Below are positions 1,826 through 60,672 of a stretch of DNA of 64,000 nucleotides, in pieces. The notes under the pieces were generated by a model. The model saw only the letters and a program-made list of their open reading frames with translations. It was not told where the DNA came from and did no database searches. This stretch comes from a virus (Duplodnaviria > Caudoviricetes): the IMG/VR virus record IMGVR_UViG_3300030433_002456, positions 1 to 64,000 of that record; one strand, written 5' to 3'. Each line of letters begins with the position of its first letter. Position 1 is the stretch's first letter. The position numbers and the translations under genes were made by a program.

Positions 1826-2596
1826 ATGTCAAAAAATGATCAATTCTCTGAGGGTTGTTCACGATGCAGTGACTACGATAAGTTAAAGGATGATCTTGAA
1901 AACCTCAAAGAGAAGTCTAAGAATGAGCAACGCGAGGCACTCAAGTCTTGCGAACAAGGTCGAGAATTATTACAAAAGAAATTGTTAAAAGTTGGGGCAG
2001 TTGCCGTAATTGGTGGCACTATAGTTGGTAAAGAACTTATAGACAAAGTTGCAAGTTATATTGAATCTTTCAATAAGGTGACCGATTTGATTTCTTATAA
2101 TACCCCCACTTTTACAGCACCGGTTTCCTCACCCGGTGGCGAGCAAGTCGCACAGAATGATGAGGAAGATGATAAAGAAGATGACAAGAAGGATGAAAAA
2201 GATAAAGAAAAGATGGCAGATGCCGGTGGACCCCTCACTCCTCCTTTTCTCGGTCCTGATGTATATGATACCTTTGGTTATAGCAGAGAGAGCGTATTCA
2301 CTGATATGTTCCCTACTGACCCACTCGTAGAATCCTTTCTGGCGAACGAGGCGTTGTCTCTGACCGCTTTGCCCAATGAAATCGATATGGCATCCCTGAT
2401 TCAAGACTTCGCTCTAGCGGATTCATTGAATACATTTGATCTTCCTTGGACTAATGCATTCGAGTTGCCGGGACCGTTTATTGATAATCCATCAATGCCA
2501 CAGCAGGCAATGATCATCCCAGATGCCGGTACGGGTATGCCTTTAATTTTCGCTATTCCTTTGATGGGATTCTTGGGTCGCCGTAGGAATACATAG
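1826..2596 (+). CDS. Membrane protein with a C-terminal PEP-CTERM-like sorting signal
   Basis: AGGAG RBS. Hydrophobic segment VGAVAVIGGTIVG and an acidic low-complexity middle. C-terminus is IPDAG + hydrophobic stretch + GRRR. Confidence 0.6.
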   Translation: MSKNDQFSEGCSRCSDYDKLKDDLENLKEKSKNEQREALKSCEQGRELLQKKLLKVGAVAVIGGTIVGKELIDKVASYIESFNKVTDLISYNTPTFTAPVSSPGGEQVAQNDEEDDKEDDKKDEKDKEKMADAGGPLTPPFLGPDVYDTFGYSRESVFTDMFPTDPLVESFLANEALSLTALPNEIDMASLIQDFALADSLNTFDLPWTNAFELPGPFIDNPSMPQQAMIIPDAGTGMPLIFAIPLMGFLGRRRNT

Positions 2597-2611: not shown

Positions 2612-2899
2612 ATGCCAACATATAGTTTTAATTGTGAAAGTTGTGAAAAGTCATTTGATAGTTTTCTTACCATGTCTAGATGTGATGAACCATTGGGTGA
2701 ACCATGTCCTGAATGTGGAGTGAGTGGTAAGGTGGTGAAAGCATACTTGTCTGCACCTAGTGCCATGTTGGATACGAATCACGTTGTTGATAGACCACAG
2801 GGTGGAGCGTTCCAAGAGCGTATGCAACACATCATTGATAATGCACCGGCGTTAGACAAAGAGGCAAAGGCGAATCTAGAAAGACACACAACCCGATGA
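2612..2899 (+). CDS. FmdB-family zinc-ribbon protein
   Basis: MPTYSFNCESC...CPECG pattern; AGGAG RBS. Confidence 0.8.
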   Translation: MPTYSFNCESCEKSFDSFLTMSRCDEPLGEPCPECGVSGKVVKAYLSAPSAMLDTNHVVDRPQGGAFQERMQHIIDNAPALDKEAKANLERHTTR

Positions 2900-5475
2900 C
2901 CAAGCGTATACCCAAATCCAAAGAGGGACAGGATCCCGATACCCACAGTGATCTCTACACAGACGAGGATCCCAAGGGTACGATACATGGACTAGGGTTC
3001 ACGGATGCCGCTAAGGCAAAAGAGTCGGTTGCCAAGATCGAACGATCAGATCGCACCCATGCACATAAGGTGCAGGCAGCAATCGCTATGAGTCAGAGGG
3101 CAAAGGTCGCCAGCAAGAGAGCAAAGGATCCGGAGAAGAAGAAAAACCTCGCCGCTGCGGCGGAGGTTTACTTTGCTTTTATAGAAAAGATGAAAAAAAT
3201 AACTAAGAAGAGACAAATGAAAGAATTCAGCGAATACATCTCCGAGACTAGTGGTGAATACGAGGGCAGGAAAGTTGACCTCGACAATCCGTTCCGTCTA
3301 CCACAAGGATCGAAAAAGAAGTTCGGTGTCTATGTACGAAACGACAAAGGCAACGTGATCAAGGTAACATTCGGTGATCCCAACCTGTCTATCAAGCGTG
3401 ATCATGAAGACCGACTCAAGAACTTCCGTGCGAGACACAATTGTGACGAGAAGAAGGACAAGACCACTCCGGGTTATTGGTCTTGCAAATTCTGGGAGAA
3501 GGATAGTCCAGTGTCGAAACTCTTGAGCAAGGGTGATGTGACCGAGGATGCTGAGTGGAAAGACAAGAACGATGAGCGTGAACACAACAAGTTGTTTATG
3601 CAATCACTGAAAGTCATGCCGGGTTCTCCCAAGCAGAAAAAGATCGTTCAACAGATGAATGTTCTACGCAAGAAGAATGGTCTTGAACTTCTGGGAGAAG
3701 ATACGCAACTCGATGAGCGGAAAAAAATAACTCATGTCATTGATCGAAGAACAGGCGAATCTGTTTACGGTCCCACTGATGTTGCAGATGCAAAAAGATT
3801 TTTGAAAAAGCAAATCCAACCTAACAAGTTTATGATTCGTGATATCAAAGAGGATGTGCAACTCGATGAATCAATCGAATCACTCAAGGGATGGATCCAT
3901 CCTAAAAAGAAGAAGGCATATACCACTGAGCGTATGCGACCATACCATGTGGAGTTCATCGTCAGGAAACCAAGAGACTATGGTCTCAACAAGAAGCAGA
4001 TCCTCGACTATCTTGAGAAAAAGTTTGACTTGATGGATGCACCTGATCCTGAGCAAGCAGCAAAGCAGGGGTACGAGGATATTCTGGCAGGACGAAACGA
4101 CATCGACCGAAACATTGAACACATGGCAATGAAAAAAGGTTGGGTTCGTGTCGTTGGTGGTAAGTTTGCTTCTATTGCAAGCAATGTAAAATTAAATGAC
4201 AGACAGGTCGGTATAATTCTTAGTATCATGGAGGATGAGGGACTGATTGGTGATGCTGCTGGAGTCTACACAAGAGAAGTCGGTCTCGAATACTACGAGG
4301 AGTCGGATCGTGCTGATGTCAATGCCCGTGTAAGATATTACAAAACTATCGAGGGAGCAGACATTCAGAACTTGATCAAGGGTAAACCACGCGGGACCAA
4401 GAGAACAGAGATAGGACAAACTATGGCAATGTTTAGAGGAGAGTCGCTTGAAATTTCGCAACTAGGTGAGGCAGTAGATCAGAAGGATATGCTTCGTATC
4501 TTCAATGATCTCAACAAGGGTGACACCATCAAGGTCAAGTTTAAGTCGGTGATGGCATCGGCAACCAAGAACTTCGTCGAGTTGGTAGTAACCAGTGGTC
4601 GCCGCACAGTAGGCAAGGCAAAGGTCGAGCGTATCATTCTCAAGTCGAAGAAAAATCCCGGCGGTGTGAAGTATTACCTATATCGTCGTGGTGATAATGT
4701 ATCGTTCGCAATGGGCGACATGGCAGCGATCATCGATGAGATTGATGAGTCATACGAGCATGAGTTATTCGAGAGTGCGATGAAGCGTCTAAGTGCGAGA
4801 CTCATGAAACTAACTCCCGTAGCAAACGCTATTGCAAAAAATCCACAAACTACAAATCTTGCAGTAAGTCTCATTGCCATCCCAGCGGTTAATGCTATTC
4901 TTAAGCGTGCAAATTATGATAATTTGCAAAAAGTCATTGATCTCGCTGACTTTATGAAAGATGCGGCGTTGTCACTGGGTGCCGAGAGAGACCCCAAACT
5001 AGAAAACACGGTCCTTAAATATTCGCAGTTCTTAGATGAAAAGGTTTACGCCAAGTCTGGACTCGGCAAGTGGTTTGGCAGTGGTGGCGGTGGTGGTGTT
5101 GAAAAGGGTGGATGGGACAGATATAGCACAACCGGCAAGCGTATGGGGAAATGCGGTGATGCCGAAGAGGGCGAACCATATAGTGCCTGTTTGTCAAAAG
5201 ACAAGGCAAAAAAATTAGGAAAGAAAAAGATCGCCTCTTTCGTTCGTCGCAAGAGAGATGCACAGGATAAGGCAAAGCGTGGCGATGTTGGTGACGGCGG
5301 AAAAGGCAAGAAACCAATTAACGTTAAAACTGGCGTAACTGATAAAGATCCTAAAAAACAAGGTATCCAAGATGACTGGTCCGCTAAATATAAAAGTAGT
5401 ATTGACTGTGACAACCCAAAAGGATTTTCCCAACGCGCCCATTGTCAGGGTAGAAAAAAGAGAGGACTTGACTAA
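2896..5475 (+). CDS. Multi-module Lys-rich protein (859 aa), putative internal head polyprotein
   Basis: Internal capsid-targeting-like MKEFSEYISE at 3217. Modules are separated by EDTQLDE, EDVQLDE, SQLGE, EIDE, ELFE and QFLDE. Several modules resemble small stand-alone phage proteins (FRARHNC...YWSCKFW; GLGKWF...ACL; IDCDNPKGFSQRAHC). Confidence 0.65.
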   Translation: MTKRIPKSKEGQDPDTHSDLYTDEDPKGTIHGLGFTDAAKAKESVAKIERSDRTHAHKVQAAIAMSQRAKVASKRAKDPEKKKNLAAAAEVYFAFIEKMKKITKKRQMKEFSEYISETSGEYEGRKVDLDNPFRLPQGSKKKFGVYVRNDKGNVIKVTFGDPNLSIKRDHEDRLKNFRARHNCDEKKDKTTPGYWSCKFWEKDSPVSKLLSKGDVTEDAEWKDKNDEREHNKLFMQSLKVMPGSPKQKKIVQQMNVLRKKNGLELLGEDTQLDERKKITHVIDRRTGESVYGPTDVADAKRFLKKQIQPNKFMIRDIKEDVQLDESIESLKGWIHPKKKKAYTTERMRPYHVEFIVRKPRDYGLNKKQILDYLEKKFDLMDAPDPEQAAKQGYEDILAGRNDIDRNIEHMAMKKGWVRVVGGKFASIASNVKLNDRQVGIILSIMEDEGLIGDAAGVYTREVGLEYYEESDRADVNARVRYYKTIEGADIQNLIKGKPRGTKRTEIGQTMAMFRGESLEISQLGEAVDQKDMLRIFNDLNKGDTIKVKFKSVMASATKNFVELVVTSGRRTVGKAKVERIILKSKKNPGGVKYYLYRRGDNVSFAMGDMAAIIDEIDESYEHELFESAMKRLSARLMKLTPVANAIAKNPQTTNLAVSLIAIPAVNAILKRANYDNLQKVIDLADFMKDAALSLGAERDPKLENTVLKYSQFLDEKVYAKSGLGKWFGSGGGGGVEKGGWDRYSTTGKRMGKCGDAEEGEPYSACLSKDKAKKLGKKKIASFVRRKRDAQDKAKRGDVGDGGKGKKPINVKTGVTDKDPKKQGIQDDWSAKYKSSIDCDNPKGFSQRAHCQGRKKRGLD

Positions 5476-6653
5476 TGAAATCATTCGGTGAATTTTCGCA
5501 CGATCTCCAAGAGAAAAATGTTCCCAACAACCCGGAACTATGGAAGAAGGCAATCGCAAAAGCGAAGGCAAAGTTTGATGTCTACCCATCCGCATATGCT
5601 AACGCATGGGCATCCAAGTGGTACAAGGGTGAGGGTGGCACATGGAGTACGAAGAAAGAAGAAGTCGAGATCGATGAAAGCACCCCAGCATATCGCAAGA
5701 TGATGAAAGACTATGCCAAGAGCGATGATAAGAAAGTCTTTGATATTCTTGACAAAAACGGTTATCGTCTAGGGGAACAAGGGGACACTCTTGTTCGCAA
5801 CATGCTCAAGAAGTTTAAGGGAGATGTCAAGAAGGCAGCAGCAGAGATCATGAAGAAGTATCCCGGCATGAAGAAAGAGGATGTTGAACTTGACGAGAAC
5901 CGTGATTTCGCTGCAAAGAAGTTTATGAATGCATTGATGAAAGCAAACATCATAGGAGTTTATGATAATCTTTCTGGAACAATGCGAGTTACAAAGAGAA
6001 ACTTGGCCAAAGCACAAAGCATTGGTAAAAAACTCAAGGTCGATAAAGATGGTGTGAGTATTGATATCATAAAAGAGGATGTTGATGAGGGTTTCGCAAG
6101 TGACGCTCAACGCCGTGCCGCATTCGCCAGCGGATATAAGGCGAAGGGTAAGAAGGGCAAAAAGGAAGAAGTTGAGGTTCACGAAGAGGACGAAGACAAG
6201 AAACCACTCATGACATGGTTCGCCCAGTTCGAGAAGGAACTTAAGAAATCAGGTGGCAAGTATAAGGATGTTGATCCTACTGACATGCTCAAACTATACT
6301 ACAAGGGCATTAAACCAAAGGTTGCCGCCAAACAACTTACTGCATCATACACATTTGACAAGGAAAAGGGTGAATATGTCCGCATGGACGAAGCATCTTT
6401 CGCTGATCGTATGATTGTCAAACAAGGTCGCTCTCCCGGTTCTGGTATTGCTCGATCCACCAATATAGGTCTCGTCCTACCCAAAACAGCGTCGATGGAG
6501 AAAAAAATCAAAGCGGTTATGGAAAAGGACGCTGCGATGCGCCGAAAGATGGCAAATCTTGTAGTCGGTCGTGAGGATCGTGAGAAAGAATTTGTTCTTT
6601 ACTTCAAATCCGCACAGGGCAGAAAAAACTTTCGTCAAATGATGGACTCATGA
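5475..6653 (+). CDS. Multi-module protein (392 aa), putative internal head polyprotein
   Basis: N-terminal MKSFGEFSHDLQE. Linkers KKEEVEIDE, KKEDVELDE, IKEDVDE and KKEEVEVHE. First module contains KFDVYPSAYANAW. Confidence 0.65.
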   Translation: MKSFGEFSHDLQEKNVPNNPELWKKAIAKAKAKFDVYPSAYANAWASKWYKGEGGTWSTKKEEVEIDESTPAYRKMMKDYAKSDDKKVFDILDKNGYRLGEQGDTLVRNMLKKFKGDVKKAAAEIMKKYPGMKKEDVELDENRDFAAKKFMNALMKANIIGVYDNLSGTMRVTKRNLAKAQSIGKKLKVDKDGVSIDIIKEDVDEGFASDAQRRAAFASGYKAKGKKGKKEEVEVHEEDEDKKPLMTWFAQFEKELKKSGGKYKDVDPTDMLKLYYKGIKPKVAAKQLTASYTFDKEKGEYVRMDEASFADRMIVKQGRSPGSGIARSTNIGLVLPKTASMEKKIKAVMEKDAAMRRKMANLVVGREDREKEFVLYFKSAQGRKNFRQMMDS

Positions 6654-6672
6654 TTAACACAAAGGGAGTTGC

Positions 6673-7191
6673 ATGAAGAGAGAGGTATTACTACTCAACT
6701 CATGTGAACAAATACTAAAAATTATATCATGGAAAAAAGCAGTTAGACTCTTGCTTTCGGGAAAGGCAACGAAACCGCATACCCCATACAAAAAGACACA
6801 CACGATAAGGACGGTGACCGGTGAGGTAGAGATACCCGCCGCCATCGTCCTTGTTCGTTTTCACGAACTACCCGAACTAGATGTCCGACCGACTCGTAGA
6901 AATATCTTTAAACGAGATAACCACACTTGTCAATATTGCGGTCTTCACACAAAGAATGTAAAAAATTTAACAATAGATCATGTCCACCCCAGATGCAGGG
7001 GTGGGGATAATGGTTGGACCAATCTAGTCACGGCATGTTTTGTTTGTAACAACAAAAAAGGAAACAAGTTACTCAAAGAGTGTGATATGAATCTTCGCTG
7101 TAAACCGAGGAAACCTAGATATTACGCACTTCACCTAACCGGACTTGATGAAAACGGTAAGGAACTTTGGAGTCAATGGATTAACTTATGA
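6673..7191 (+). CDS. HNH endonuclease (McrA-like family)
   Basis: VLLLNS N-terminus; RRNIFKRDNHTCQYCG...TIDHVHP...GG...WTNLVTAC..CN..KG. Confidence 0.9.
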   Translation: MKREVLLLNSCEQILKIISWKKAVRLLLSGKATKPHTPYKKTHTIRTVTGEVEIPAAIVLVRFHELPELDVRPTRRNIFKRDNHTCQYCGLHTKNVKNLTIDHVHPRCRGGDNGWTNLVTACFVCNNKKGNKLLKECDMNLRCKPRKPRYYALHLTGLDENGKELWSQWINL

Positions 7192-7907
7192 AATCTTTTT
7201 TACAATATCTTGACGAGGCGTATATCTCGCCCAACAACGGAGCAAAGTATGGACAGGTCATCTTTCTCGTTGGTGGTGCTGCGTCTGGCAAGAGTACCGC
7301 AATAAGAAAATTTATTGATTTTGCGACATACAAAACAATCAATCCGGATGATGTCAAGGATCTCATGCGTCGAGCGTCTGAGAAGGGCATTGAGGGGTTT
7401 CAGGACTTGATTGGAGTTGATCCACAGACACCCGAGGGAGCAGCAGCGTACCATAGCAAAATGAATCAAATGAAATTGAGTTCTCGTATGTCGAAGAGAC
7501 TCACACTAGATCCAAATCGTTCGCCGGAGGCGTATCCTAATTTGCTTTTCGACCGCACATTTAGTTTTGCAGGTGAAATAGAAAAAATATCGAAGAGTCT
7601 TATAAGATACGGTTACAAACCAGAGAACATACACATCGTGTATGTTTTTACCGATGTGAACATAGCACTCAAACGCAACCGGGAACGATCTAGGACACTT
7701 GCCGATGATATCATTGTGCAAAGTGCAAAGGGGGCGAAGAGAAACTTTATAGATCTCCTCTTCCAAAGAATGAAAGCAGCACCCGTGAATGGAGATTTCT
7801 TCATGGTTGCTAATGATCGTGTCATTCCGATCAAAAAGTCAGGTAAGCGTGTGGACCGTTCAGGAGATGTTGCAAAGAAAGTTGCCCGGACGCTTGGCAT
7901 ACTTTAA
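7188..7907 (+). CDS. Zeta-toxin/AAA_33-like P-loop kinase with a capsid-targeting-like N-terminus
   Basis: Walker [20 protein letters not shown] and [10 protein letters not shown] lid; begins [10 protein letters not shown]. Confidence 0.7.
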
Positions 7908-8484
7908 TTCAATTTTCGCACTTTTAATAATTCTCTGTTCTGCCGCTCTGGGGCAGGAGATTTGTCGTCCCCCGATGGTTTCCTTTGATGTGCATAGACT
8001 TGAACTAGAAAACGGATATCTGCACACCACTGGTGGAGTTGCCCGAGAAACCCGTGTGATTGAAGTTGACTACATCGACAATCGAAGAATCGTAACTAAC
8101 CTATTCGACTCGCAAGGCACAGTCACGCTTACGAATCAAACTCCTCAAGCAAGACGCATTAAATACAGACACTATGTTACCGTTCCTAAAGGTGAATACA
8201 CAATCACACAACATGATGCAGATTATGAAGTGTGTGCCGATAACGGTCAAGTTGTATTTTATACAGATGCGGTTCTTGCAAGCGGTGTGCCATTCACAAA
8301 AGATTGGGTATACACCGTGGAGATACAAGTGTGGGGCGATCTTAACAACGATGGAAACATTAACGGTTTCGATCTAGGAAGTCTGTTCATTCAGTGGGGT
8401 ATGGATGGAGCAGCAGACTTCAACACGGACGGTATCGTGGATGCAGAGGATCTTGGCATTTTACTTACAAATTGGACCGGATGA
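7894..8484 (+). CDS. Secreted protein with a C-terminal dockerin-like (paired EF-hand) domain
   Basis: Probable TTG start giving signal peptide [20 protein letters not shown] (the ORF is open from 7789). C-terminus [22 protein letters not shown]...[21 protein letters not shown]. Confidence 0.7.
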
Positions 8485-8487
8485 ATT

Positions 8488-8495
8488 TATAAATA
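8488..8495 (+). promoter_or_regulatory. Canonical T4 late promoter TATAAATA
   Basis: Exact T4 gp55 consensus, about 50 nt upstream of the 8545 ORF. Confidence 0.45.
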
Positions 8496-8544
8496 TTTTT
8501 GTGAAATTTCGCTAAAAATATGAACCATAGAGGGGAGAAATCTC

Positions 8545-8808
8545 ATGGAAGAAGCACTGAGCAACTACTTCATGGATTTCATTATGGGTGCGTTGGGAAC
8601 AGCGGTGTTCGCACTAATTGGGTTTGTATGGAAAGTGAGTCATAAAGTCTCTGCTCTCGAAAAGCAAGTAGCAAATGAGAGAGAAATGAGACAGCGAGGC
8701 GAAAGAGAGTTTCGTAGAGACATCGACAATATCGTTGACAATGTTGACAAAAATAGAGAATGGTCTACAAATAGAATGATGTCAATTGCTAAAGAATTGC
8801 CCAGATAA
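8545..8808 (+). CDS. Small single-TM coiled-coil protein (holin/XhlA-like architecture)
   Basis: GGAG RBS; N-terminal hydrophobic helix followed by a charged coiled coil. Confidence 0.55.
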   Translation: MEEALSNYFMDFIMGALGTAVFALIGFVWKVSHKVSALEKQVANEREMRQRGEREFRRDIDNIVDNVDKNREWSTNRMMSIAKELPR

Positions 8809-8812
8809 CGAG

Positions 8813-8838
8813 AAACGCCCCAGACATGGGGCGTTTTT
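8813..8838. terminator. Rho-independent terminator, probably bidirectional
   Basis: aaacgcccca-gaca-tggggcgttt plus a T tail, between convergent ORFs. Confidence 0.8.
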
Positions 8839-8840
8839 CA

Positions 8841-9068
8841 TTAGACCGCTTTGCGTCTTGCTCTCGACATGAATCTTGCACGCAACGCTCGGTTGACAAC
8901 CTGATTATATCGGATCACATAGTCTGCGACCTCTTTGTCGGGGACATCATTGATGTCTGGGAGTTTGTCCTGTTCGGTGATCTCTTCAACTTCCTCTTCG
9001 AGTTCTGGTTCGAGAACCCTCTTTGATGCTTCATTGAGTGATTTAAAAAGATTTTTATCTAGACGCAT
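8841..9068 (-). CDS. Hypothetical protein (75 aa)
   Basis: GAGGTG RBS and an ATACATAA motif upstream on the minus strand; converges on the terminator; contains SLNE and ITE motifs. Confidence 0.6.
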   Translation of the reverse strand: MRLDKNLFKSLNEASKRVLEPELEEEVEEITEQDKLPDINDVPDKEVADYVIRYNQVVNRALRARFMSRARRKAV

Positions 9069-9164
9069 GTGTCACCTCTGATATTATGTATAAGAATTTT
9101 AAAACTACTACATATTGAGACGGTTTCTTATAAACCACAATTATCTATTCACAGGAGAATGTCG

Positions 9165-9428
9165 ATGAGCGATGCCTTACAGAAGAAGTTTAGTATGACA
9201 GCGATCATAGTAGGGTGGTTTGTCACAATCGCCGCTTTTATTTACAACTTTGCAACTACGAATGCAAATTACGCACACAGGATTGAAGCGATTGAATCAG
9301 AATTGCTAAATCTAGATCAAAGACTAGACACTAGTGAGGCATTCAGAATTCAACTCGCATCTGACCTAGCAGAAATCAAGACGGATCTCCTATGGATCCG
9401 CAGATCTATCGAAGAACAAGGAAAGTAA
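9165..9428 (+). CDS. Small single-TM coiled-coil protein
   Basis: AGGAG at 9153 with ATG at 9159 or 9165. TM segment AIIVGWFVTIAAFIY; C-terminal LAEIKTDLLWIR. Confidence 0.55.
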   Translation: MSDALQKKFSMTAIIVGWFVTIAAFIYNFATTNANYAHRIEAIESELLNLDQRLDTSEAFRIQLASDLAEIKTDLLWIRRSIEEQGK

Positions 9429-9431
9429 ACT

Positions 9432-12224
9432 ATGTGGTATCCACCAAGTAAACAGCAAATCGAAAGTAACACCAATCCATTCCGTGCTTTGACTCCAGAG
9501 CAGATGCGACAAAAGCAAATGCAGGAGATCGAAGAGGCAAAAAAAGTCAAAGTCCCGTCGAAACTCCTGAAAGACTTCCAGAAGGAGATCAAGAACGAGC
9601 GTGATTATCAGTTCGCCGGGACAGACAGCAAAGAAGATAAAAAAGAAATTATTGAGGACGAAAAAGAACTCCTCAAACTTTTAAGATTACTACAACAGGG
9701 GAAGATTGAAAAGGCATACGACCAGTTCGACCGCTTGGATACCGCGTTGGCAGATGTCGTTCCACAAAAACTACTCCAGTTCATGGATCAGAACCTTGAT
9801 GAGAGCGTTCTCGAAAGTCTCGATGAGATTGTAAGAGCAAAAGACAAGTACCCCGAGATTGACAAGATCAAAAAGGTATTGAAGAAGAAGGGCATTGGGT
9901 TCTACACCAAAGAGGGTGCTATCATGGTCAACCCTGCCAATGTCGTTGAGGCACGCTCGGCACTCAACAAGGCATTCGGTGGTCAGTTCGAGAAGAAGAC
10001 TGGCATGGAAGTGAGATCTGATAAGAGGCAGTCGGTCTCCGATGAAGTCGAACTCGATGAAATGAAAAAGTCTGACGGACCATTCACGATAGTTGCCATC
10101 AAAAACAACAAAGTTGTTAGACAATTTCATAGTATTGAACATCACGAAATTGAAGACGCAATTGAATTGGTGAAAACAATGACGGGGATGGAAGGTGTAA
10201 AGATTTCGGTTGAATCCAAGAAGGGTAAGATTGTTCACACCGAAGAAGTCGAGCAAGTCGATGAGGGTTCCGCAAAAGACAAGCGTATGATGAAGTCGGT
10301 CAAGGATAAGTTGACCAAGGCAGGCATCAAGAACGCTGTCATGTTTGGCGAGGTCCATGTCGCTCCTGCTGATGTAAAAGAAGCAGAAAAGATTGTTGGT
10401 GATATGCCATTCAAGGTTGTCCCACAAAAGAAACTCGAAGAGATGTCCGCCAAGGATCACTACAGAAAAGTCATGAGAGGTGGCAGAGGCAAGGGATTTG
10501 TGGTCAGCAGTCCCATTGACCGTGAGCGATATCCCGACCGTGAGCGAGAAGGACTTGAAGGACCATACAAGAGTCGCAAGTCTGGTAAGATTTTCTACTA
10601 CGACAAGAAGGCAGGCAAATACTACGATCCCGATTCAGACATGTACCTTGATGTCTCTGATGTCATGGAGTCAACTCACGACGCGGCATGGTGGGAGAAA
10701 AAGGTCAACCCAAAAAGTAGGGGTTGGAAGAACGGCACTGTCGCTGTAAACTTTAAAACATTCACCTCTGGTGGTAAATATGTGTCATTCAAAAAGGGTG
10801 ATCCCATCTTTTATCACCCGATGGAAATCAAGGGGACCGGTGGTAGAAAATATAAGGTCGTCATCGCTGCCGATTCGATAGCGGACGCTGATAGTTATTT
10901 CTCGGTTCACCCCGACCGTCTCGGTCTCAAGGGATTCGACAGTGCAACAGGACCACTAAAGAACTCTGTTAACGAGGCGATGTCACCATTTAATGTCATG
11001 GGTGGCAAGAAGAGTGGAACTCCACGCAAAATTGGTAAGGACTTAGAAAACACTCTCAAGATGACAAAACCATCTGAGTATAGTTTCTCTGCACCCGCCG
11101 CCGATGGTAGTGGTCTTTTTGCTGTGATCCCACTCAAGAGACCATCCGGTCAAGCAGGGGTCATGATGGCAACATTTGACACCAAGGGTAGCAGAACAAA
11201 GGTAGTAAACTACTACGGGACACATTTGAACACAGATGCCGCAATGAAGTTTGCGAAGAAAGAGGGTCTCATTGAGTCCGTTCAATTGGATGAGGCAACT
11301 CAACACACCGTGCATGTCAATGTAAGTAAAACAGGTTTTAGAAAACTTGAAGCGATGATTGCAAGTCTTGACGGATACCGAGAGTCAGATTATAGTGATG
11401 GGAAGGCGAGATTTTACTTCGACGCAAAGAAACACGATAGTGCTGAACGAAAGAAGGTAGCAGAGTTTATCAAGAAGACTCGCGGTGCTGAGTTTAGTCA
11501 TGCTATCAAGGAAAATCCAGAGTACGATAAGGGACTATCAGATATGAACATCGGAGAGATTAACGAAAAGGTCATGCGACCAATGGGACTTCCCGGTAAG
11601 TTCCCACCCAAGGGCAAGTTCACTTCACAGCAGATCGCCGCACTTCGCAAGGAGTATCAGAAGATTGGTAGTGTTGATCCTTCATCTAAGACTTATGAGA
11701 ATCTAACCAAGTTCCTTGACTCTTTATCCGATGAGATGCTCAAGCAACTTTCACAGGCAAAGATTAAGTTCATTTCCGGACTCGCACTCAATCGTGTGGT
11801 CAAGCGAGGACTTAAGGACTCATATGAGTTTGACTCAAAAACCGGTGAGTATATTCGTGCAGACGGAGAAGATCCATTGGGAATTGATGGTTCGTTGGGT
11901 AGACAGGTCAAGGAGTCCGTTGAAATTTCGGAAGCAGTGGACGAGGTTGCTGCCCGTGAACTTACCCTCTACATCGAAAACGATGCCGGTCTATACCGGC
12001 AGAGGATTCAACCCATCATCAAGAATCTCGCACGCAAGATGAAAAAGGGAACCTTTGACGCTGGACTAGCACAGAAGGGTTTCATGTACGCGGTCGAGCA
12101 TGGTCTTAAGAATTACAACAAAGAATTTGGTCCCGGATTCAAAATCGATAAGGACACCAAAAAGAAAGTTGCCCAAGACCTGCTAGACAACTTCATGGAC
12201 GAAATCGAAGATGCCGCATCATGA
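9432..12224 (+). CDS. Multi-module Lys-rich protein (930 aa), putative internal head polyprotein
   Basis: About ten modules separated by NLDESVLESLDE, DEVELDE, EEVEQVDE, KLEE, VME, SVNE, ESVQLDE, EINE and ESVEISEAVDE. Confidence 0.65.
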   Translation: MWYPPSKQQIESNTNPFRALTPEQMRQKQMQEIEEAKKVKVPSKLLKDFQKEIKNERDYQFAGTDSKEDKKEIIEDEKELLKLLRLLQQGKIEKAYDQFDRLDTALADVVPQKLLQFMDQNLDESVLESLDEIVRAKDKYPEIDKIKKVLKKKGIGFYTKEGAIMVNPANVVEARSALNKAFGGQFEKKTGMEVRSDKRQSVSDEVELDEMKKSDGPFTIVAIKNNKVVRQFHSIEHHEIEDAIELVKTMTGMEGVKISVESKKGKIVHTEEVEQVDEGSAKDKRMMKSVKDKLTKAGIKNAVMFGEVHVAPADVKEAEKIVGDMPFKVVPQKKLEEMSAKDHYRKVMRGGRGKGFVVSSPIDRERYPDREREGLEGPYKSRKSGKIFYYDKKAGKYYDPDSDMYLDVSDVMESTHDAAWWEKKVNPKSRGWKNGTVAVNFKTFTSGGKYVSFKKGDPIFYHPMEIKGTGGRKYKVVIAADSIADADSYFSVHPDRLGLKGFDSATGPLKNSVNEAMSPFNVMGGKKSGTPRKIGKDLENTLKMTKPSEYSFSAPAADGSGLFAVIPLKRPSGQAGVMMATFDTKGSRTKVVNYYGTHLNTDAAMKFAKKEGLIESVQLDEATQHTVHVNVSKTGFRKLEAMIASLDGYRESDYSDGKARFYFDAKKHDSAERKKVAEFIKKTRGAEFSHAIKENPEYDKGLSDMNIGEINEKVMRPMGLPGKFPPKGKFTSQQIAALRKEYQKIGSVDPSSKTYENLTKFLDSLSDEMLKQLSQAKIKFISGLALNRVVKRGLKDSYEFDSKTGEYIRADGEDPLGIDGSLGRQVKESVEISEAVDEVAARELTLYIENDAGLYRQRIQPIIKNLARKMKKGTFDAGLAQKGFMYAVEHGLKNYNKEFGPGFKIDKDTKKKVAQDLLDNFMDEIEDAAS

Positions 12225-13062
12225 CGAACTTTTAAATTTCGCTGAAGAGTTTTTAACAGAGTCTCCCACTCCCGGTGAGAAGCGAGGTGATTATGAAAAC
12301 TCTAAACTGCGGAAATCTAAGATGTCCACACAGGCAGCAAAGAAGGCAAGTAGTGATGTGTTAAGAGGTGTTGCCTCCCGTGGTGGAGCGAGTGTCTCCG
12401 TTGCTAACACGGAATTGAAAAAAAGAGAGGATTCTAAATCATCCTCCAAAGACGACGATGATTTATCTGCCGATGAAAAAGAAAAAAAGGACAAATTTAA
12501 GTCTGATGCAGAAAAGGCAGTTGATAAAGTTGAGGACATGATTGGTGATGGCGATCCGGATATCCCACCAGATCTTCCAGATGATATGGAAGACCCCGAG
12601 GTCAGAAACAAATTTAAAGATTTCTTTGAAAACAACCCACTAGGAAAGGCGTTATCTGCTTTCTTTGACACGGAACCAGCACCCTTCCCCGGAATGGAAG
12701 ATAGTAAAGCAGAGTTTCTCACCAAAGCGAAGAACGCGGTGATCGCCGCAAGAGACAAGCAGATCGAAAAGGGTTCTGAAAAACGAAAGAAAGAAAAAGA
12801 AAAGGAAGATAAAGAGAAAGAAAGAGAATCTACTTTTAGGGGCATGAGTGTAGATCGTCTAGAAAAAATACTCGACGATCCTGATGTCCCAAAAGAGGAC
12901 AAAAAAGCGGCGAGAGAGATCTTAAAGGATAAGAAGAAAAACAAGAAAGAAACGACAGAGGAAAATTACAATTGTTTATTGTCAACCATCAAAGAAATGT
13001 CGGAACCACAAGCGATTTACAAAAACCTACATACTGTGGTAAAGGAGATAACAAATGAGTGA
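12211..13062 (+). CDS. Highly charged hypothetical protein, possible internal head protein
   Basis: N-terminal ...FAEEFLTE; K/D/E-rich; overlaps the upstream stop. Confidence 0.55.
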   Translation: MPHHDELLNFAEEFLTESPTPGEKRGDYENSKLRKSKMSTQAAKKASSDVLRGVASRGGASVSVANTELKKREDSKSSSKDDDDLSADEKEKKDKFKSDAEKAVDKVEDMIGDGDPDIPPDLPDDMEDPEVRNKFKDFFENNPLGKALSAFFDTEPAPFPGMEDSKAEFLTKAKNAVIAARDKQIEKGSEKRKKEKEKEDKEKERESTFRGMSVDRLEKILDDPDVPKEDKKAAREILKDKKKNKKETTEENYNCLLSTIKEMSEPQAIYKNLHTVVKEITNE

Positions 13063-13471
13063 TCTAGGAGCAGGCGGAACCGTAGATTTTAGCAATCTTC
13101 CGGCATATAGTATCCGCAGTCAACAGACAAACACCACGGATATTCGCAGAACAGTAGCACCACAACCGACTGTGATTGGCACTTTTCATGTGCTGAACTC
13201 CGCAGGATTTAGTGGTGCTGGTGATGTTATTAAAGGGACTCTCCCCGGTGTTAACACAACAACTTTAAATCAAGGTGTTCTTTTCCGAGTTGTTGATAAC
13301 AACACCACCGTAGGACACATTGGAATTACAAAACCGGGAGCGGGAATATCTGATGCCGTCATGCTAGAAGAGGGAGATGAAATTTTCATCCCAGCAGAGA
13401 GGTTGAATGATATAATCATCGGTCATACGACTGCAACAAGCGGCATTACCTTTTCAGCGTTAGGAGAATAA
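13055..13471 (+). CDS. Putative virion/decoration protein, paralog A
   Basis: AAGGAG RBS, CTACATAC motif upstream; starts MSDLGAGGTVDFSNLPAYSIR; Gly/Thr-rich and beta-like. Confidence 0.6.
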   Translation: MSDLGAGGTVDFSNLPAYSIRSQQTNTTDIRRTVAPQPTVIGTFHVLNSAGFSGAGDVIKGTLPGVNTTTLNQGVLFRVVDNNTTVGHIGITKPGAGISDAVMLEEGDEIFIPAERLNDIIIGHTTATSGITFSALGE

Positions 13472-13472
13472 T

Positions 13473-14000
13473 ATGAGTGACCTTGGTGCGGGCGGAACTG
13501 TTGATTACAGCAATATGCCATCATACTCTGTTCGTGCAGACCAGACAAATGCCACGGACATCCGTAGGGTTGTTGGTGTGTTTCCGTCTGTGCATAAACC
13601 AGATATTAATGTCGCAAACACGCCACATACATTTCAAACAATAAAAGAACTTACCGGTGTCGCCACTGCGGTTGAGGGAGTGGAAATAATTTCCAAAGGA
13701 TCGACAACGGGGGTACTCAACGAATACAGATCATTTAATACCCTTATTAAATTGGGTGGAGTAACAGGTTCGGTCACGTTTCCACCCACCGCAGATTTTT
13801 TAAGTGATAAGTTTGTAATTGAGAGAACTCGATTTCAGGGTGGAATTCAGAAAGATCCCAACGAAGAGAAAAGTGAGGGTATTTTTATACCAATCACAGA
13901 TCTTTCACAGATTTCAGTCGCAGGGATAACAAATACAAATACAGCAGTTCTTCCACCGGACACTCAATTCGATGGTTTTACGGAGATTAGAATCAAATGA
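13473..14000 (+). CDS. Putative virion/decoration protein, paralog B
   Basis: Starts MSDLGAGGTVDYSNMPSYSVR, nearly identical to the N-terminus of the preceding ORF. Confidence 0.6.
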   Translation: MSDLGAGGTVDYSNMPSYSVRADQTNATDIRRVVGVFPSVHKPDINVANTPHTFQTIKELTGVATAVEGVEIISKGSTTGVLNEYRSFNTLIKLGGVTGSVTFPPTADFLSDKFVIERTRFQGGIQKDPNEEKSEGIFIPITDLSQISVAGITNTNTAVLPPDTQFDGFTEIRIK

Positions 14001-14579: not shown

Positions 14580-15239
14580 GTGAATAACAACAAGACATTT
14601 ACTCATGTCTCACTTAATCATACTTTTGAAAATCTAAAGTGTGTTACGAGTGAGGGCAGCAGACACTATGTCACCCCAGATGGCGACAAGTATTTCTCAG
14701 TTACCACCGTAACGGGACACAAGAAAAAGGCATTCTTCGCTGAGTGGCGAAAGAAGAACCCCAAGGAGTCCGTTCGCGTGACTCGTCGGGGCAACCATCT
14801 CCACAGTCTTATTGAAGATTATATTAATAACAAAGAACTCGACCCCAAGGGCGATGAAATTTTATTGTTCAAGCAAGCACTTCCGATGCTGAACAAAATT
14901 GATAATGTGTATGCACAGGAAGTCCCGCTTTATAGTAAGTTACTAAAACTTGCCGGTCGCGTGGACTGCGTTGCAGAATACAAAGGCAAACTCTCGATCA
15001 TCGACTTCAAGGGATCGACCCGTGAAAAGCGGATTAGCGACATTGACAATTACTTTCAGCAAGCAACTGCATATGCGATTATGTGGAAGGAACTGACTGG
15101 TCAAACCATTGATCAAATTGTCATCCTAATCACAAGCGAAGATGGAACCACACAGGAAATCGTGGATAACCCGATTAACCATGTTGCGTCTCTTCGTAAA
15201 ACCATTAGTGATTTTCAGAACCTCAAAGTCCAGCGGTAG
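14580..15239 (+). CDS. PD-(D/E)XK exonuclease (Cas4/MGME1-like, common in T4-like phages)
   Basis: YFSVTTV, RGNHLH, QEVPLYS...LAGRVDC, IIDFKGS, YFQQATAYA. The ATG at 14574 abuts the -10 box, so the GTG at 14580 is the preferred start. Confidence 0.85.
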   Translation: MNNNKTFTHVSLNHTFENLKCVTSEGSRHYVTPDGDKYFSVTTVTGHKKKAFFAEWRKKNPKESVRVTRRGNHLHSLIEDYINNKELDPKGDEILLFKQALPMLNKIDNVYAQEVPLYSKLLKLAGRVDCVAEYKGKLSIIDFKGSTREKRISDIDNYFQQATAYAIMWKELTGQTIDQIVILITSEDGTTQEIVDNPINHVASLRKTISDFQNLKVQR

Positions 15240-17394
15240 CACGGCGACGAGCGACAGCAGGATTCAGTCTTTGCGTTGCTGGTCGTAGACCCTGATTCAC
15301 CGAGACTTTTACCTTTGGTCTATGGGCACCGGCACCCTGATCAAAGAACTGTAAAAGCATTGCAGGTCTGACATCATCGCTCCCCGGTCGCAAACCAGTT
15401 GACTCGGCAAACCAATCTGATGCCTCGATCATGAAGTTCATGACACCGTTGTTGTTTCGAGCAGCGTCTCTTGCAATCTCAGTGAGATCAAAAGTAATTT
15501 TATCAAGTGGTTTGATCTCGTCACCGATTGTAACACTTGACGTTGCGACTAGATCTCTATCAGTTTCGTTTCTACCAGAGTCAGATGTCCACGATTGTCC
15601 GTTGTCTCTGTTGTTACAACTTACATAACTGGTATCAATGGCGACCTTTGATCTATACACACTAAGTTTTAGTGGTTTTACTCTTGGTGTAGCGGCGGTG
15701 TGGGCGAGTCTGCCGAAGACATCTTTTACGGTGAGTTCTAGAACGCAGGACATAACGGTATCTCTCGGACCAACCACTAGTTGATTTCCACTTGCAAATT
15801 CAAGACCACCATTAAGGTTGTGGTTGAAGTATGCGATTGGAACAATGTCTCCACGAACGTAGTTGCCCTTGATCGATGTTATCTCACCTGACTTGATGGT
15901 CACGGATCGTTCATCTGCACACTGATCGCATTCTTGACACTCGTCAAACGGTGCTTCTGTTGGACAACACAACCCCTGATCTTCACATGGATCTGGGTCT
16001 GTCTCACATGGGTTACCTAAGCAATCTCCTTTGGGACAACCATTTTCATCTAAACCAACACCAAGGACACCGGGATTCTCTGGGCAACCACACCCGTCGG
16101 GACACTCTGCCTCGCAGGTGTCATCACAGTAACTGCCGCAGGGCAGATTCGGTGGACACTTCTCTGGTGTGCCGGGACAGAACCCTCGACAATTTAGTGG
16201 CGGACACTCCGGGACCGGTTGACCCGGACAGTATTCGATCTCTGAGCATACATCACCATCTCTATTTGTGCAAGTCTTGGTCTTCGAGTCTATACAATTG
16301 CAATCTTCGTCTTGTCCACAAAGGTTGTCACATGGTTCACACGGGGGATCGCAATCACAGGTTACTTCATCGGTAAAACAACCGTCACCATCTCGAACAG
16401 GTTCACAAACGCATTTGTCACCGCAACCCCCGTTACCATTTAGACACGGGTTGGGTACTGGGTTGTTGCAGCACCCTCCCCCGGTGTCGAAACACACTTC
16501 CGTATCACATGGGTCGGTAGGGCACTCCGAACGCTGGCAAAAGACTCCGCCACTGCAAATCACCTCGCTGTCGCAACCGCCGCAACAAAATCTGCAAATA
16601 TCACCCCCGTCGTTCGGACATACACAATCGCCTTGACCTCCGCTGCGATTATAGGCATCTCCGTACACACGACTTATTGTGTTTGCGAAGTTGATCTCCC
16701 GGGCCTTCGTAAAATTGCGATCTTTTTCAATCGCATCATATCCGATGTCTTCAATCTTACTTGACAATCTGGGATCGGTGACCGGAGAATTATCCTCTTT
16801 GATGTCCTCTGATGAATTATCAAAAGCAAAGTCAACGCCGCCAGATGACTTTCTTACCTGAACAGAGTTGATAAAACCACTTGAATCACCCATTGACATG
16901 GCGGGAGTTGTTCCAATCACACTCTTTAAGACTGAATATGGTACGTTGGGGATAGGTTGATGTGCCTTTACACCTTTTCTATATCTTGCATGTGCAAAGT
17001 TATGTGATATGTTAAAAACGGGAGCATGTTCGACACCTGCGTCATTGAAGTTTTTTCTATTTTCAGAAAAAACCTGAGTGTGCGATGGAACAAATCGATT
17101 TATTGCCCCAAGACCAAAGAAGTTGTCGTTGTTGACACCACCATTTGTCTGGTGAAATGCAGCGGATCCACCAGCGAGAAGAACATCGGTCGCGTTTCTT
17201 GAGTTATCAGCACCGCCGACACCGGTTCCGTCGAGAAAGTCACCGTCTTCACAAGGGGGACATTCACAGGTCGGTCCCTCGTTACAACTACCATCAGGAC
17301 ATGGTGCATTGTAAACAAAGAAGTCCTGTGTAAGTCGAACGAGGCGACCAGCACCTAGATGACGACCTGCTGTTACGCGATGTCTTGCTGCCAT
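15223..17394 (-). CDS. Cysteine-rich protein with a C-terminal DNRLRE/CBM96-like domain
   Basis: Central ~240 aa densely C/P/D/G/E. The C-terminal LELTV...LSVY...W...ITFDLTEI...RPKVKV resembles DNRLRE domains. Confidence 0.6.
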   Translation of the reverse strand: MAARHRVTAGRHLGAGRLVRLTQDFFVYNAPCPDGSCNEGPTCECPPCEDGDFLDGTGVGGADNSRNATDVLLAGGSAAFHQTNGGVNNDNFFGLGAINRFVPSHTQVFSENRKNFNDAGVEHAPVFNISHNFAHARYRKGVKAHQPIPNVPYSVLKSVIGTTPAMSMGDSSGFINSVQVRKSSGGVDFAFDNSSEDIKEDNSPVTDPRLSSKIEDIGYDAIEKDRNFTKAREINFANTISRVYGDAYNRSGGQGDCVCPNDGGDICRFCCGGCDSEVICSGGVFCQRSECPTDPCDTEVCFDTGGGCCNNPVPNPCLNGNGGCGDKCVCEPVRDGDGCFTDEVTCDCDPPCEPCDNLCGQDEDCNCIDSKTKTCTNRDGDVCSEIEYCPGQPVPECPPLNCRGFCPGTPEKCPPNLPCGSYCDDTCEAECPDGCGCPENPGVLGVGLDENGCPKGDCLGNPCETDPDPCEDQGLCCPTEAPFDECQECDQCADERSVTIKSGEITSIKGNYVRGDIVPIAYFNHNLNGGLEFASGNQLVVGPRDTVMSCVLELTVKDVFGRLAHTAATPRVKPLKLSVYRSKVAIDTSYVSCNNRDNGQSWTSDSGRNETDRDLVATSSVTIGDEIKPLDKITFDLTEIARDAARNNNGVMNFMIEASDWFAESTGLRPGSDDVRPAMLLQFFDQGAGAHRPKVKVSVNQGLRPATQRLNPAVARRRATAGL

Positions 17395-59941: not shown

Positions 59942-60672
59942 TGCGTTCGCTTATAGATTTTATAGAAAACGATCAGATTGACTTACTTGAAACTTTTATC
60001 GAGTCTCGTTTATCTGAACTTGCTATAAAAAACTTTGACGAGGCGACTCCGCGTGTGTTTAATATTTTTGAACAAGAGGGTTCTGCGACAGAGGATCCCA
60101 AAGGAACAATAGAGGATCCGTTACTACAACCATCTGACATTGTTTCAAAGGAATATTTCTTCAAAAGGTTTCCATACGGTGATCATGAGATTCTCATGAA
60201 AAAGGTTGGCATGGGACAAAACGCACCAACGGTAACTTACATTGATGGTGAGCGGTATGAAGTTTTCACCACATCGAAGCAGGCAGAAAAGGAGACCATT
60301 CGCTATATTAAGGATGGTTCTTATGCTAAAGCAAACGACGCAAAAAAAGCAAAAGAAGATGAGGCGGCGAAGGCAGAGCAAGACAAAGTAGAGGCAGAAG
60401 ATCAAAAGAAAAAAGAGGAAGAGGCGAACCACGAAAAAATAACTGAGTCTCTACGTCGGGTCACTGACACTGGTCGTCCCTCTATTTTTACAATGACAAA
60501 CGGCGAGGAAATGATAATTACGCTATCAGAAGCGACACACGCCTTAGAAATACTAAATCTGCTAAATAATCAGAACGGCATTAAGTTTTTAAGGCGTTTG
60601 TCTGACAGTGTGACTTCATATCAAGACACTATGGACTTTTTTCTCGACAGAATTAGAAAAGGAATCTATTGA
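59941..60672 (+). CDS. Prohead core protein (gp67/gp68-region)
   Basis: Located between portal and protease; charged; contains NFDE, IFE and ITE motifs. Confidence 0.55.
   Translation: MRSLIDFIENDQIDLLETFIESRLSELAIKNFDEATPRVFNIFEQEGSATEDPKGTIEDPLLQPSDIVSKEYFFKRFPYGDHEILMKKVGMGQNAPTVTYIDGERYEVFTTSKQAEKETIRYIKDGSYAKANDAKKAKEDEAAKAEQDKVEAEDQKKKEEEANHEKITESLRRVTDTGRPSIFTMTNGEEMIITLSEATHALEILNLLNNQNGIKFLRRLSDSVTSYQDTMDFFLDRIRKGIY

Follow-up and report, generated by a model that had tools for sequence, protein, structure and literature searches.

Linker-joined strings of small basic modules in an uncultured T4-like phage: candidate polyprotein cargo of the phage head

The window analysed here, positions 1 to 64,000 of the IMG/VR record IMGVR_UViG_3300030433_002456 (Caudoviricetes), makes up the first 64 kb of a viral contig 79,951 bp long, which carries the gene set of a T4-like myovirus. 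Near one end of it, three large open reading frames (ORFs) on the plus strand encode proteins of 859 amino acids (aa; 2896..5475), 392 aa (5475..6653) and 930 aa (9432..12224), and comparison with relatives establishes that these are strings of independently evolving small basic modules with boundaries defined by a recurring acidic linker. The isoelectric points (pI) of the whole proteins are 9.6, 9.5 and 9.1 respectively, and those of most modules lie between 8.9 and 9.7 with the acidic linker tail included, against a median of 5.2 for the 79 ORFs of the contig, so that basic modules stand out from an acidic proteome. A first-pass annotation of this DNA had described the ORFs as basic modules joined by a recurring acidic linker, and both halves of that description hold: the modules are basic, and relatives change whole modules at the linkers. 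The same annotation went further in reading each ORF as a capsid-targeted polyprotein that is cut by the prohead protease of the phage, gp21.

The linker instances that it had reported, ten in all with the first ending at nucleotide 3717 and the last at 11933, are present. The 859-aa ORF carries EDTQLDE (3697..3717) and EDVQLDE (3850..3870), the latter preceded by the module RKKITHVIDR.... Four instances lie in the 392-aa ORF: EEVEIDE (5658..5678, residues 62-68), EDVELDE (5877..5897, residues 135-141), the short form EDVDE (6075..6089, residues 201-205), after which the module GFASDAQRRAAF begins, and EEVEVHE (6165..6185, residues 231-237). The 930-aa ORF contributes DEVELDE (10041..10061), EEVEQVDE (10242..10265), ESVQLDE (11274..11294), followed by the module ATQHTVHV..., and ESVEISE (11913..11933), whose following module stands behind the peptide MKAFREIKE in the related protein P0146. 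All ten fit the pattern [LIV]-x-E. A further, degenerate junction in the 930-aa ORF, KLEE/MSAK (10431..10442), offers L-E-E in a loop between predicted elements; in the related contig L003 the two modules that flank it are separated by full linkers, DDVQIDE after the first and ESVEQVDE before the second. For the 859-aa ORF, the [LI]xE positions and the breaks in homology place the proposed cuts after residues 117 (ISE), 217 (VTE), 274 (LDE), 325 (LDE), 525 (LGE) and 615/618 (IDE), and its segment 121-198 matches a stand-alone family, phrog_7595 (96 positions). The 392-aa ORF comprises about six modules behind its tag, and the 930-aa ORF at least seven behind an acidic leader of 132 aa.

A strict form of the linker, [DE][DES]V[EQ][LIV][DSH]E, was defined post hoc after the instances had been viewed. 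The 2,181 aa encoded by the three ORFs contain 7 copies and the 24,066 aa of the other 76 called ORFs contain 0, and in 2,000 composition-preserving shuffles its mean count was 0.00 and its maximum 1, with none reaching 7. The enrichment over shuffled sequence, whose absence the first-pass annotation had counted among the observations that would refute it, is clear, and the margin is far beyond what the post hoc definition could explain. The plain [LIV]xE motif is mildly enriched (41 observed against a shuffle mean of 28.4, with 12 of the 2,000 shuffles reaching 41). The codons of the linker vary synonymously (GAA/GAG, GAT/GAC, GTT/GTC/GTG and CTC/CTT/TTG), from which it follows that conservation is at the level of the peptide and not of a DNA repeat; the possibility that the linker is a DNA repeat or a recombination site is ruled out by these synonymous differences.

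Comparison with related IMG/VR contigs (L001-L014) reveals the same construction in their long ORFs, which use the linker variants EDVQLDE, DDVQIDE, ESVELDE, ESVEQVDE and ENVHLDE, with modules in different orders and combinations. In L002, a 354-aa ORF has the module ATQHTVHV...SHAIK of the 930-aa ORF flanked by ENVHLDE and EDVQLDE, and it ends with a homologue of the RKKITHVIDR module of the 859-aa ORF; in L003, a 663-aa ORF ends in GFASDAQRRAAFASGYKAKGKK of the 392-aa ORF. Two syntenic contigs, L006 and L007, are the closest relatives and differ from the window by whole modules. In both, the homologue of the 859-aa ORF lacks residues ~218-325, two small modules ending EDTQLDE and EDVQLDE, so that the deletion ends at linker-type sites. 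The L006 homologue of the 392-aa ORF is 140 aa long, the first module and the fifth being all that it retains. At the point that corresponds to ...YVRMDE/ASFADRM... in the 392-aa ORF, the gene of L006 ends with ...YVRMDSE and is followed by another that begins MKSFKRYLKE. A phmmer search with the 930-aa ORF against 1.84 billion cluster representatives returned 3,418 relatives at E<=1e-3 and 581 at E<=1e-10. Among the best 150 of the 3,418, lengths range from 61 to 2,125 aa, match ends cluster at linkers, and 112 strict linkers are found, with at least one in 70 of the 150 proteins; the commonest are ESVELDE (38) and EDVQLDE (20), and the spacing between successive linkers has a median of 82 aa (interquartile range 72-146). 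Megablast of the polyprotein region against 50,697 phage records gave zero matches. In Rhizobium phage RHEph12 a homologue of one module of the 930-aa ORF is encoded directly after the major head protein gene. The protein beside that gene (L016, 1498-2187) contains a twice-repeated L(S/T)PLKALMVE, which may represent protease sites in an unrelated phage.

The three ORFs were cut after the listed linkers and tags, and the residues preceding homologous module starts in other proteins were tallied. This reduced 264 high-scoring segment pairs to 77 unique contexts that start exactly at module residue 1, 70 of them internal. Glu occupies P1 in 56 of the 70 internal contexts and [LIVM]xE precedes the module in 51, compared with per-position backgrounds of 0.077 and 0.023 in the same proteins. 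Further upstream the sequence differs among contexts, and the upstream neighbour modules are therefore different ones. The proportion with [LIVM]xE varies by module (14/14 for ATQHTVHV, 5/5 for KNVPNNP, 4/12 for MKKSDGPF and 0/3 for NRDFAAKK), and the module GFASDAQRRAAF that follows EDVDE here is preceded by Glu in 9/9 other contexts. At P3 the 70 boundaries have Leu in 33, Val in 13, Ile in 8 and Ala in 8, and P1' after the 112 strict linkers is Ala in 37 and Met in 22. The gp21 protease of T4 is reported to cut C-terminal to Glu after L/I-X-E, the first hint of which was a glutamyl-alanyl bond in gp22 (PMC9026906); the linker ends in this L/I-X-E pattern, so placed that the cut would fall before the first residue of the next module, and the Ala-rich P1' fits the bond reported for gp22. 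The A/S/G-X-E motif of giant phages with a phiKZ-type protease is not matched, P3 being most often Leu, and the protease encoded here matches T4 gp21. The linkers are probably protease sites.

The capsid-targeting sequences (CTSs) of T4 internal proteins are 10-19 residues long, with residues 4 and 7 serving targeting and residues 8 and 10 serving processing, and Asp at position 10 is reported to prevent processing (PMC9026906). The CTS candidates of this phage follow that rule, having aromatic residues at 4 and 7 and [LI]xE at 8-10 or 11-13. Only two proteins carry a T4-type tag at the N-terminus. One is the 392-aa ORF, which starts with the CTS-like propeptide MKSFGEFSHDLQE (5475..5513; L-Q-E at 11-13), and the other is a neighbouring P-loop kinase-like protein of 239 aa and pI 9.9 (7188..7907, plus strand), with aromatics at 4 and 7 and [L]xE at 8-10. 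The kinase matches Pfam AAA_33 (E=3.7e-07), Zeta_toxin (E=1.2e-05) and phrog_5268 (E=8.3e-35), and it is a candidate single-domain cargo of the same system. The first-pass annotation had listed starts at 3217, 5475 and 7188. All three MKxF peptides exist, but that at 3217 is internal (residue 108 of the 859-aa ORF) and that at 7188 heads the separate kinase ORF.

What these tags have in common with the linkers becomes apparent when the same module is followed from protein to protein. P0029 consists of MKRFSRFITE joined to KKMTHVIDRK..., a homologue of the module at residue 275 of the 859-aa ORF; P0146 joins MKAFREIKE to AVDKTT..., the last module of the 930-aa ORF, which starts at or near Met1 in P0089, P0104 and P0109; and P0075 joins MKSFKEITE to the last module of the 392-aa ORF. 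The first module of that ORF follows MKTFSDLSLNLQE as KNVPDNP... in L006, and the KNVPNNP... module behind MKSFGEFSHDLQE follows LQE, LDE, LEE or LNE in 6 other proteins. In ORF 0154 of Vibrio phage KVP40, the 83-aa founding type of phrog_13298, MQGFKDYFKKGEVKLQE precedes a homologue of the fifth module of the 930-aa ORF. Some proteins place a Met directly on the module, and P0028 (MEESVELDE...) and P0084 (MAKIFEEVELDE...) begin with a bare linker. Module homologues are thus found alone, behind a T4-like CTS or behind a linker. The final Glu of the tag and that of the linker occupy an equal position relative to the cargo module, which argues that tags and linkers would be cut alike, and this is the strongest argument that the present analysis offers.

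Cultured phages display comparable elements. ORFs 17-21 of Methylophilales phage Melnitz (EXVC044M) show MKKFSE... starts together with EEIEIDE and EEVELDE linkers, and in Synechococcus phage S-SCSM2R the nicotinamide mononucleotide adenylyltransferase (NMNAT) ORF175 starts MKSFSKFFSE and the basic 815-aa ORF176 starts MSSWEKFSSEIVE. In the corresponding loci of Melnitz (L017, 1941-6691) and S-SCSM2R (L020, 3845-7613), CTS-like starts are found on a nucleotidyltransferase/NMNAT-like enzyme (MKKFSEIIE... and MKSFSKFFSE..., respectively) and also on long basic proteins. P0011 fuses the same type of nucleotidyltransferase to modules, and an NAD-related enzyme may be head cargo.

The remaining two polyproteins begin differently. 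The 930-aa ORF has an acidic leader (9432..9827; pI 4.9) that starts MWYPPSKQQIESNTNPF and ends ESVLESLDE, a second leader type distinct from the T4-type CTS. The pattern [WFY]x(1,2)P[PQ]...NP[FY] also opens 20 of the best 150 relatives, examples being MYFNPPTPGNNSSNPFWHPLN and MWYPPSKQQIESNTNPF itself; [LIVM]xE follows within 40 residues in 18 of these 20, and assorted modules begin after it. In L004, EETEQVDE stands directly ahead of IVRAKD, a homologue of the module next to the 930-aa leader. This PP...NPF leader is a possible second loading signal. The 859-aa ORF has an N-terminal leader of neither type. Its CTS-like peptide MKEFSEYISE (3217..3246) lies at residues 108-117, and the module ahead of it (residues 3-110) is C-terminal in the ORFs that it matches in L008-L011, of which at least some extend beyond the beginning of the locus; for this reason MKEFSEYISE looks like the start of a once-separate, tag-led gene. 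Nothing but the purine-rich AAGAAGAG is found upstream of its ATG, and the peptide is probably left over from the joining of a CTS-led gene to a module gene ahead of it, or else an internal start. The earlier reading of each ORF as a capsid-targeted polyprotein can be kept in part: the architecture, the linker that follows the gp21 rule, the gp21 gene and the equivalence of tags and linkers agree with it, but a CTS is missing from the N-terminus of the 859-aa ORF, and that of the 930-aa ORF carries MWYPP...NPF in its place.

The wider window supplies a plausible processing enzyme. It encodes a large terminase, tail sheath, tail tube, portal (58439-59941), two ORFs in the position of the prohead-core genes 67 and 68, the scaffold gp22, the major head protein gp23 and homologues of gp32 and gp33. 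The portal is ~52% identical to those of cyanomyoviruses and Pelagibacter phage Mosig, which together with the T4-like genes identifies the phage as an uncultured marine relative of Kyanoviridae-type phages. The gp21-type prohead protease that the first-pass annotation placed at 61187-61834, on the plus strand, is borne out by matches to phrog_207 (E=2.9e-77) and to the T4 gp21 structure PDB 5JBL (E=7.2e-20), and it is the proposed processing enzyme. Among five other polyprotein-bearing contigs gp21 was detected in one; its absence from the remaining four is uninformative because they are fragments estimated to be 20-27% complete. In gp23 the sequence YLKE/A (residues 46-49/50) is the last [LI]xE ahead of the conserved core. 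The first-pass annotation took it as a matching cleavage site, and the motif is present and plausible as an [L]xE/A site, but in the HMMER alignment YLKE49/A50 stands opposite YKDE53 of T4, whereas maturation of the T4 protein takes place at LTE65/A66. Both gp22 and the gp68-position ORF carry acidic, linker-like E-x-E-I-A-E sites. These sites lie in a Met-rich 61-residue segment common to the gp68-position ORF (60669-61187) and the N-terminal part of gp22 (61866-63122), with 85% identity (E=9e-29), which looks like a duplicated cassette among the prohead core genes.

Structure prediction was applied to residues 120-420 of the 930-aa ORF (alignment A2, 38 rows) and to the whole 392-aa ORF (A4, 18 rows) with AlphaFold; global MAFFT alignments of the shuffled relatives (A1, A3) were too noisy and were replaced by these. 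The first model has a mean predicted local distance difference test score (pLDDT) of 74.9 and a predicted template modelling score (pTM) of 0.37, with four compact domains whose best blocks reach pLDDT 92-97 and with pLDDT<50 at model residues 84-93, 157-171 and 296-301. The second has a mean pLDDT of 66.3, a pTM of 0.28 and five compact domains, with pLDDT<50 at 1-11, 61-69, 135-141, 191-193, 199-242 and 317-337. These low-scoring segments of the 392-aa ORF cover the tag and the linkers EEVEIDE, EDVELDE, EDVDE and EEVEVHE; in the 930-aa ORF, DEVELDE (model residues 85-91) falls inside the segment 84-93, and EEVEQVDE (152-159) lies at a domain end, partly within 157-171. Six of the ten linkers were modelled, and five lie fully and one partly in low-confidence segments between domains, so the burial of linkers inside domains that the first-pass annotation named as a counter-indication is not seen for these six.

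Function searches returned little. No Pfam family matched the 859-, 392- or 930-aa ORF at E<=0.01, the NCBIfam search of the modules gave only noise above E=0.01, PADLOC found 0 matches to the polyproteins and Foldseek of the models against the PDB found 0 at E<=1e-3. A small alpha/beta fold like that of AcrIF9 (E about 0.3-0.5) was too weak to be accepted. The BFVD fold search returned only uncharacterised small viral proteins and the ESM Atlas search no usable match. PHROG matches of the three ORFs are limited to the small unknown-function families phrog_7595, phrog_27331 and phrog_13298, and no PHROG family annotated as an internal head protein was matched.

The sequence ATACATA may be a late-promoter variant of this lineage. 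It occurs 13 times in the contig (for example at 1794, 2589, 18255, 24018, 50378 and 57829, and at 9091 on the minus strand), and 8 copies lie 12-45 nucleotides (nt) upstream of starts, those of the genes for a gp48-like baseplate protein, head-tail adaptor, tail tube, the gp33 homologue and the 2612 ORF among them. The copy at 2589..2595, on the plus strand, precedes the 2612 ORF by 23 nt, and the stop of that ORF overlaps the start of the 859-aa ORF. A motif in common with late structural genes therefore stands ahead of the operon, which may point to joint regulation with them. For the canonical T4 late promoter TATAAATA there is no enrichment, with 3 copies where 1.84 are expected, and the one at 8488 alone lies close to the region.

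Within the range 2896..13062 that the first-pass annotation had given for the system, the 283-aa ORF at its end (12211-13062), an HNH gene (6673-7191) and the ORFs of 7789-9428 have no linker, and their membership is not demonstrable. The 283-aa ORF matches its positional counterpart in L003 at E=0.036 only and was not assigned to the system. HNH endonuclease genes at 1054-1791 and 6673-7191 flank or interrupt the cassette region, the second lying between the 392-aa ORF and the CTS-bearing kinase and being conserved in L006. The 231-aa ORF at 7789-8484 has a weak dockerin-like C-terminus (E=0.0058, below the cut-off) and longer homologues in L001. Ahead of the cassettes, the C-terminal part of a vWA/phrog_459 'peptidase' protein (2-490) is followed by a 145-aa HExxH protein (487-924), and the pair is syntenic upstream of the cassettes in L002 and L006. 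Downstream, tandem paralogues at 13055-13471 and 13473-14000 have a common N-terminus, MSDLGAGGTVD(F/Y)SN, match no family and are kept downstream of a polyprotein in L001. A 723-aa protein on the minus strand (15223-17394) has a long centre rich in Cys, Pro, Gly and Asp and no PHROG match; it is kept in L001, and L003 has a shorter, Cys-poor ORF in its position.

Taken together, the explanation that we prefer is that the 859-, 392- and 930-aa ORFs encode polyprotein cargo for an internal-protein system of the T4 type. An N-terminal leader, a T4-type CTS in the case of the 392-aa ORF and the kinase and PP...NPF in that of the 930-aa ORF, would carry the whole chain into the prohead core. Activated gp21 would then cut after the Glu of the leader and of every linker, freeing about 6-8 small basic proteins per chain that would remain with the DNA and leave the head with it. 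That gp21 is the protease and that the chains are head cargo appears rather probable; the cleavage, packaging and injection of the chains are inferred, and an injected effector function of the modules is speculative. A broader proposal, put forward more tentatively and at somewhat less than even odds, is that this represents plug-and-play cargo loading widespread in aquatic T4-like phages. One leader would load an interchangeable chain of mini-proteins, a universal seven-residue adaptor would permit modules to be added, dropped or moved between chains while loading and release go on unaffected, the modules would form a rapidly evolving injected effector kit, and PP...NPF would be a second capsid-targeting signal, unrecognised until now. 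Dozens of marine viral families of small orphan proteins would then count as head cargo that is injected.

Several observations weigh against cleavage by gp21 in the head. Of the three large ORFs, a single one begins with a T4-type CTS, the tag of the 859-aa ORF being internal and the leader of the 930-aa ORF being of another kind. Fourteen of the 70 internal boundaries are without Glu at P1, as at NRDFAAKK (0/3), and several MKKSDGPF contexts have Glu three residues upstream. Linker conservation spans P7-P4 (E-[DES]-V-[EQ]) and so exceeds the minimal gp21 rule; this pattern is missing at the putative gp23 site (ENQEQYLKE), and the additional conservation might stem from a binding motif or from a different protease. 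A helix predicted with moderate confidence contains residue 132, the first boundary of the 930-aa ORF, and the alignments used for folding are shallow and disturbed at the junctions by module shuffling, which alone can lower pLDDT there. Viruses that have no T4 head, namely podoviruses, siphoviruses and an archaeal spindle-shaped virus, encode homologues of one module of the 859-aa ORF, and modules are therefore not intrinsically head proteins. The excerpted text of PMC12801897 does not name S-SCSM2R ORF175 among 23 virion proteins detected by mass spectrometry, the complete set of which the paper presents in a figure.

Such points lend themselves to other explanations. The proteins could be uncleaved multidomain chains, beads on a string in which the acidic linker is a flexible spacer, charge balancer or docking motif and whole chains would coat DNA, for instance, or work as polyvalent proteins. 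Cleavage has not been seen, conservation over seven residues is more than the L/I-X-E rule needs, and the virion RNA polymerase of N4 is a polyvalent protein that is packaged unprocessed (PMC5512222). A spacer nevertheless fails to explain why Glu almost always stands directly before module starts whatever the upstream module, why a tag-final Glu or a start Met takes the equivalent position elsewhere, why Ala dominates P1' and why P0028 and P0084 begin with the linker, and we regard uncleaved chains as unlikely. The chains might alternatively be polyproteins that are never packaged and are cut at the linkers by a host enzyme or by the HExxH protein encoded 2 kb upstream (487-924; motif TLAHEYAHMWQW). 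The HExxH ORF precedes the cassettes here and in L002 and L006 and has sub-threshold matches to DUF6782 (E=0.0031), M91 (E=0.049) and SprT-like (E=0.13) families, the 859- and 930-aa ORFs are without an N-terminal T4-type CTS, and module homologues exist in viruses without a T4 head. Yet every Pfam match of the HExxH ORF is below the cut-off, the combination of aliphatic P3, Glu at P1 and Ala-rich P1' is the pattern reported for gp21, and the peptides that substitute for linkers are T4 head-loading tags; we regard unpackaged chains cut by another protease as very unlikely.

A further alternative accepts gp21 as the protease but assigns its products to assembly instead of delivery. The chains would be accessory prohead-core or DNA-condensing proteins comparable to gp22, gp67 and gp68, with peptides that neutralise DNA charge or are expelled, and the modules would have no effector role. 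T4 core proteins are reported to be cut into many fragments by gp21, and IPIII to affect head assembly (PMC9026906, PMC5694885), and the modules are basic and have no recognisable enzymatic or anti-defence domain. They are, on the other hand, distinct compact predicted domains that are rapidly shuffled, gained and lost among close relatives, a behaviour that fits accessory or conflict genes better than parts of an assembly. Its own genes already provide the phage with gp22 and two gp67/68-position core ORFs, and enzymes join the same architecture, namely the nucleotidyltransferase (P0011, Melnitz ORF18, S-SCSM2R ORF175) and the kinase at 7188. Such a role in assembly is judged quite unlikely.

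T4 internal proteins are the classic case of injection with phage DNA, and IPI* blocks a restriction enzyme. The modules described here resemble IPI, IPII, IPIII and Alt in being small and basic, in the N-terminal tag where the 392-aa ORF and the kinase are concerned, in the L/I-X-E pattern of the putative cut after Glu and in the gp21-type protease encoded by the phage, and in both cases the cargo set is diverse and poorly conserved (PMC9026906, PMC3012670). In T4, however, every cargo is encoded and tagged separately and receives a single cut, with Alt trimmed at both ends, whereas here many modules are fused, the proposed cut site is repeated as a standard seven-residue internal adaptor at which modules are shuffled, and a second, unrelated leader type, PP...NPF, heads many chains. 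T4 gp22, gp67 and gp68 offer a precedent for one precursor with several L/I-X-E sites for gp21 in the prohead, but these core proteins are acidic helical scaffolds, unrelated in sequence, whose fragments mostly leave the head, while the strings described here are made of basic compact domains. Giant phages such as phiKZ, 201phi2-1 and SPN3US have many head-internal inner-body proteins, some of them multiply cut, probably directed by targeting propeptides, and ejected (PMC5694885). Their motif is A/S-x-E, their propeptides exceed 100 residues and, as far as the excerpted account goes, cuts mainly trim propeptides and do not separate a cargo chain; a conserved inter-module linker or module shuffling is not described in the excerpted text of that paper. 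Polyvalent proteins are likewise multidomain (2-15 domains), shuffled, predicted to be packaged in the capsid and delivered with DNA (Iyer et al. 2017; PMC5512222), but their effector domains are recognisable as enzymes, a metallopeptidase is often embedded among them, and some of these proteins enter the host unprocessed. The polyproteins of this phage have no Pfam match and no embedded peptidase, and their junctions are uniform and of the type cut by an external protease. A full-text literature search, with subscription journals outside its coverage, found no description of linker-joined internal-protein polyproteins.

If the proposal is correct, a large group of T4-like phages of oceans and lakes would have turned the internal-protein system into a polyprotein, and a single tag serving a variety of cargoes, together with a uniform protease-site adaptor, would account for the free shuffling of small orphan genes between phages. 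It would give many protein families of unknown function a location in the capsid interior and a route of delivery. Direct testing is possible in cultured relatives, Methylophilales phage Melnitz among them, and the same architecture would offer natural rules by which several foreign proteins might be packed into heads of the T4 type.

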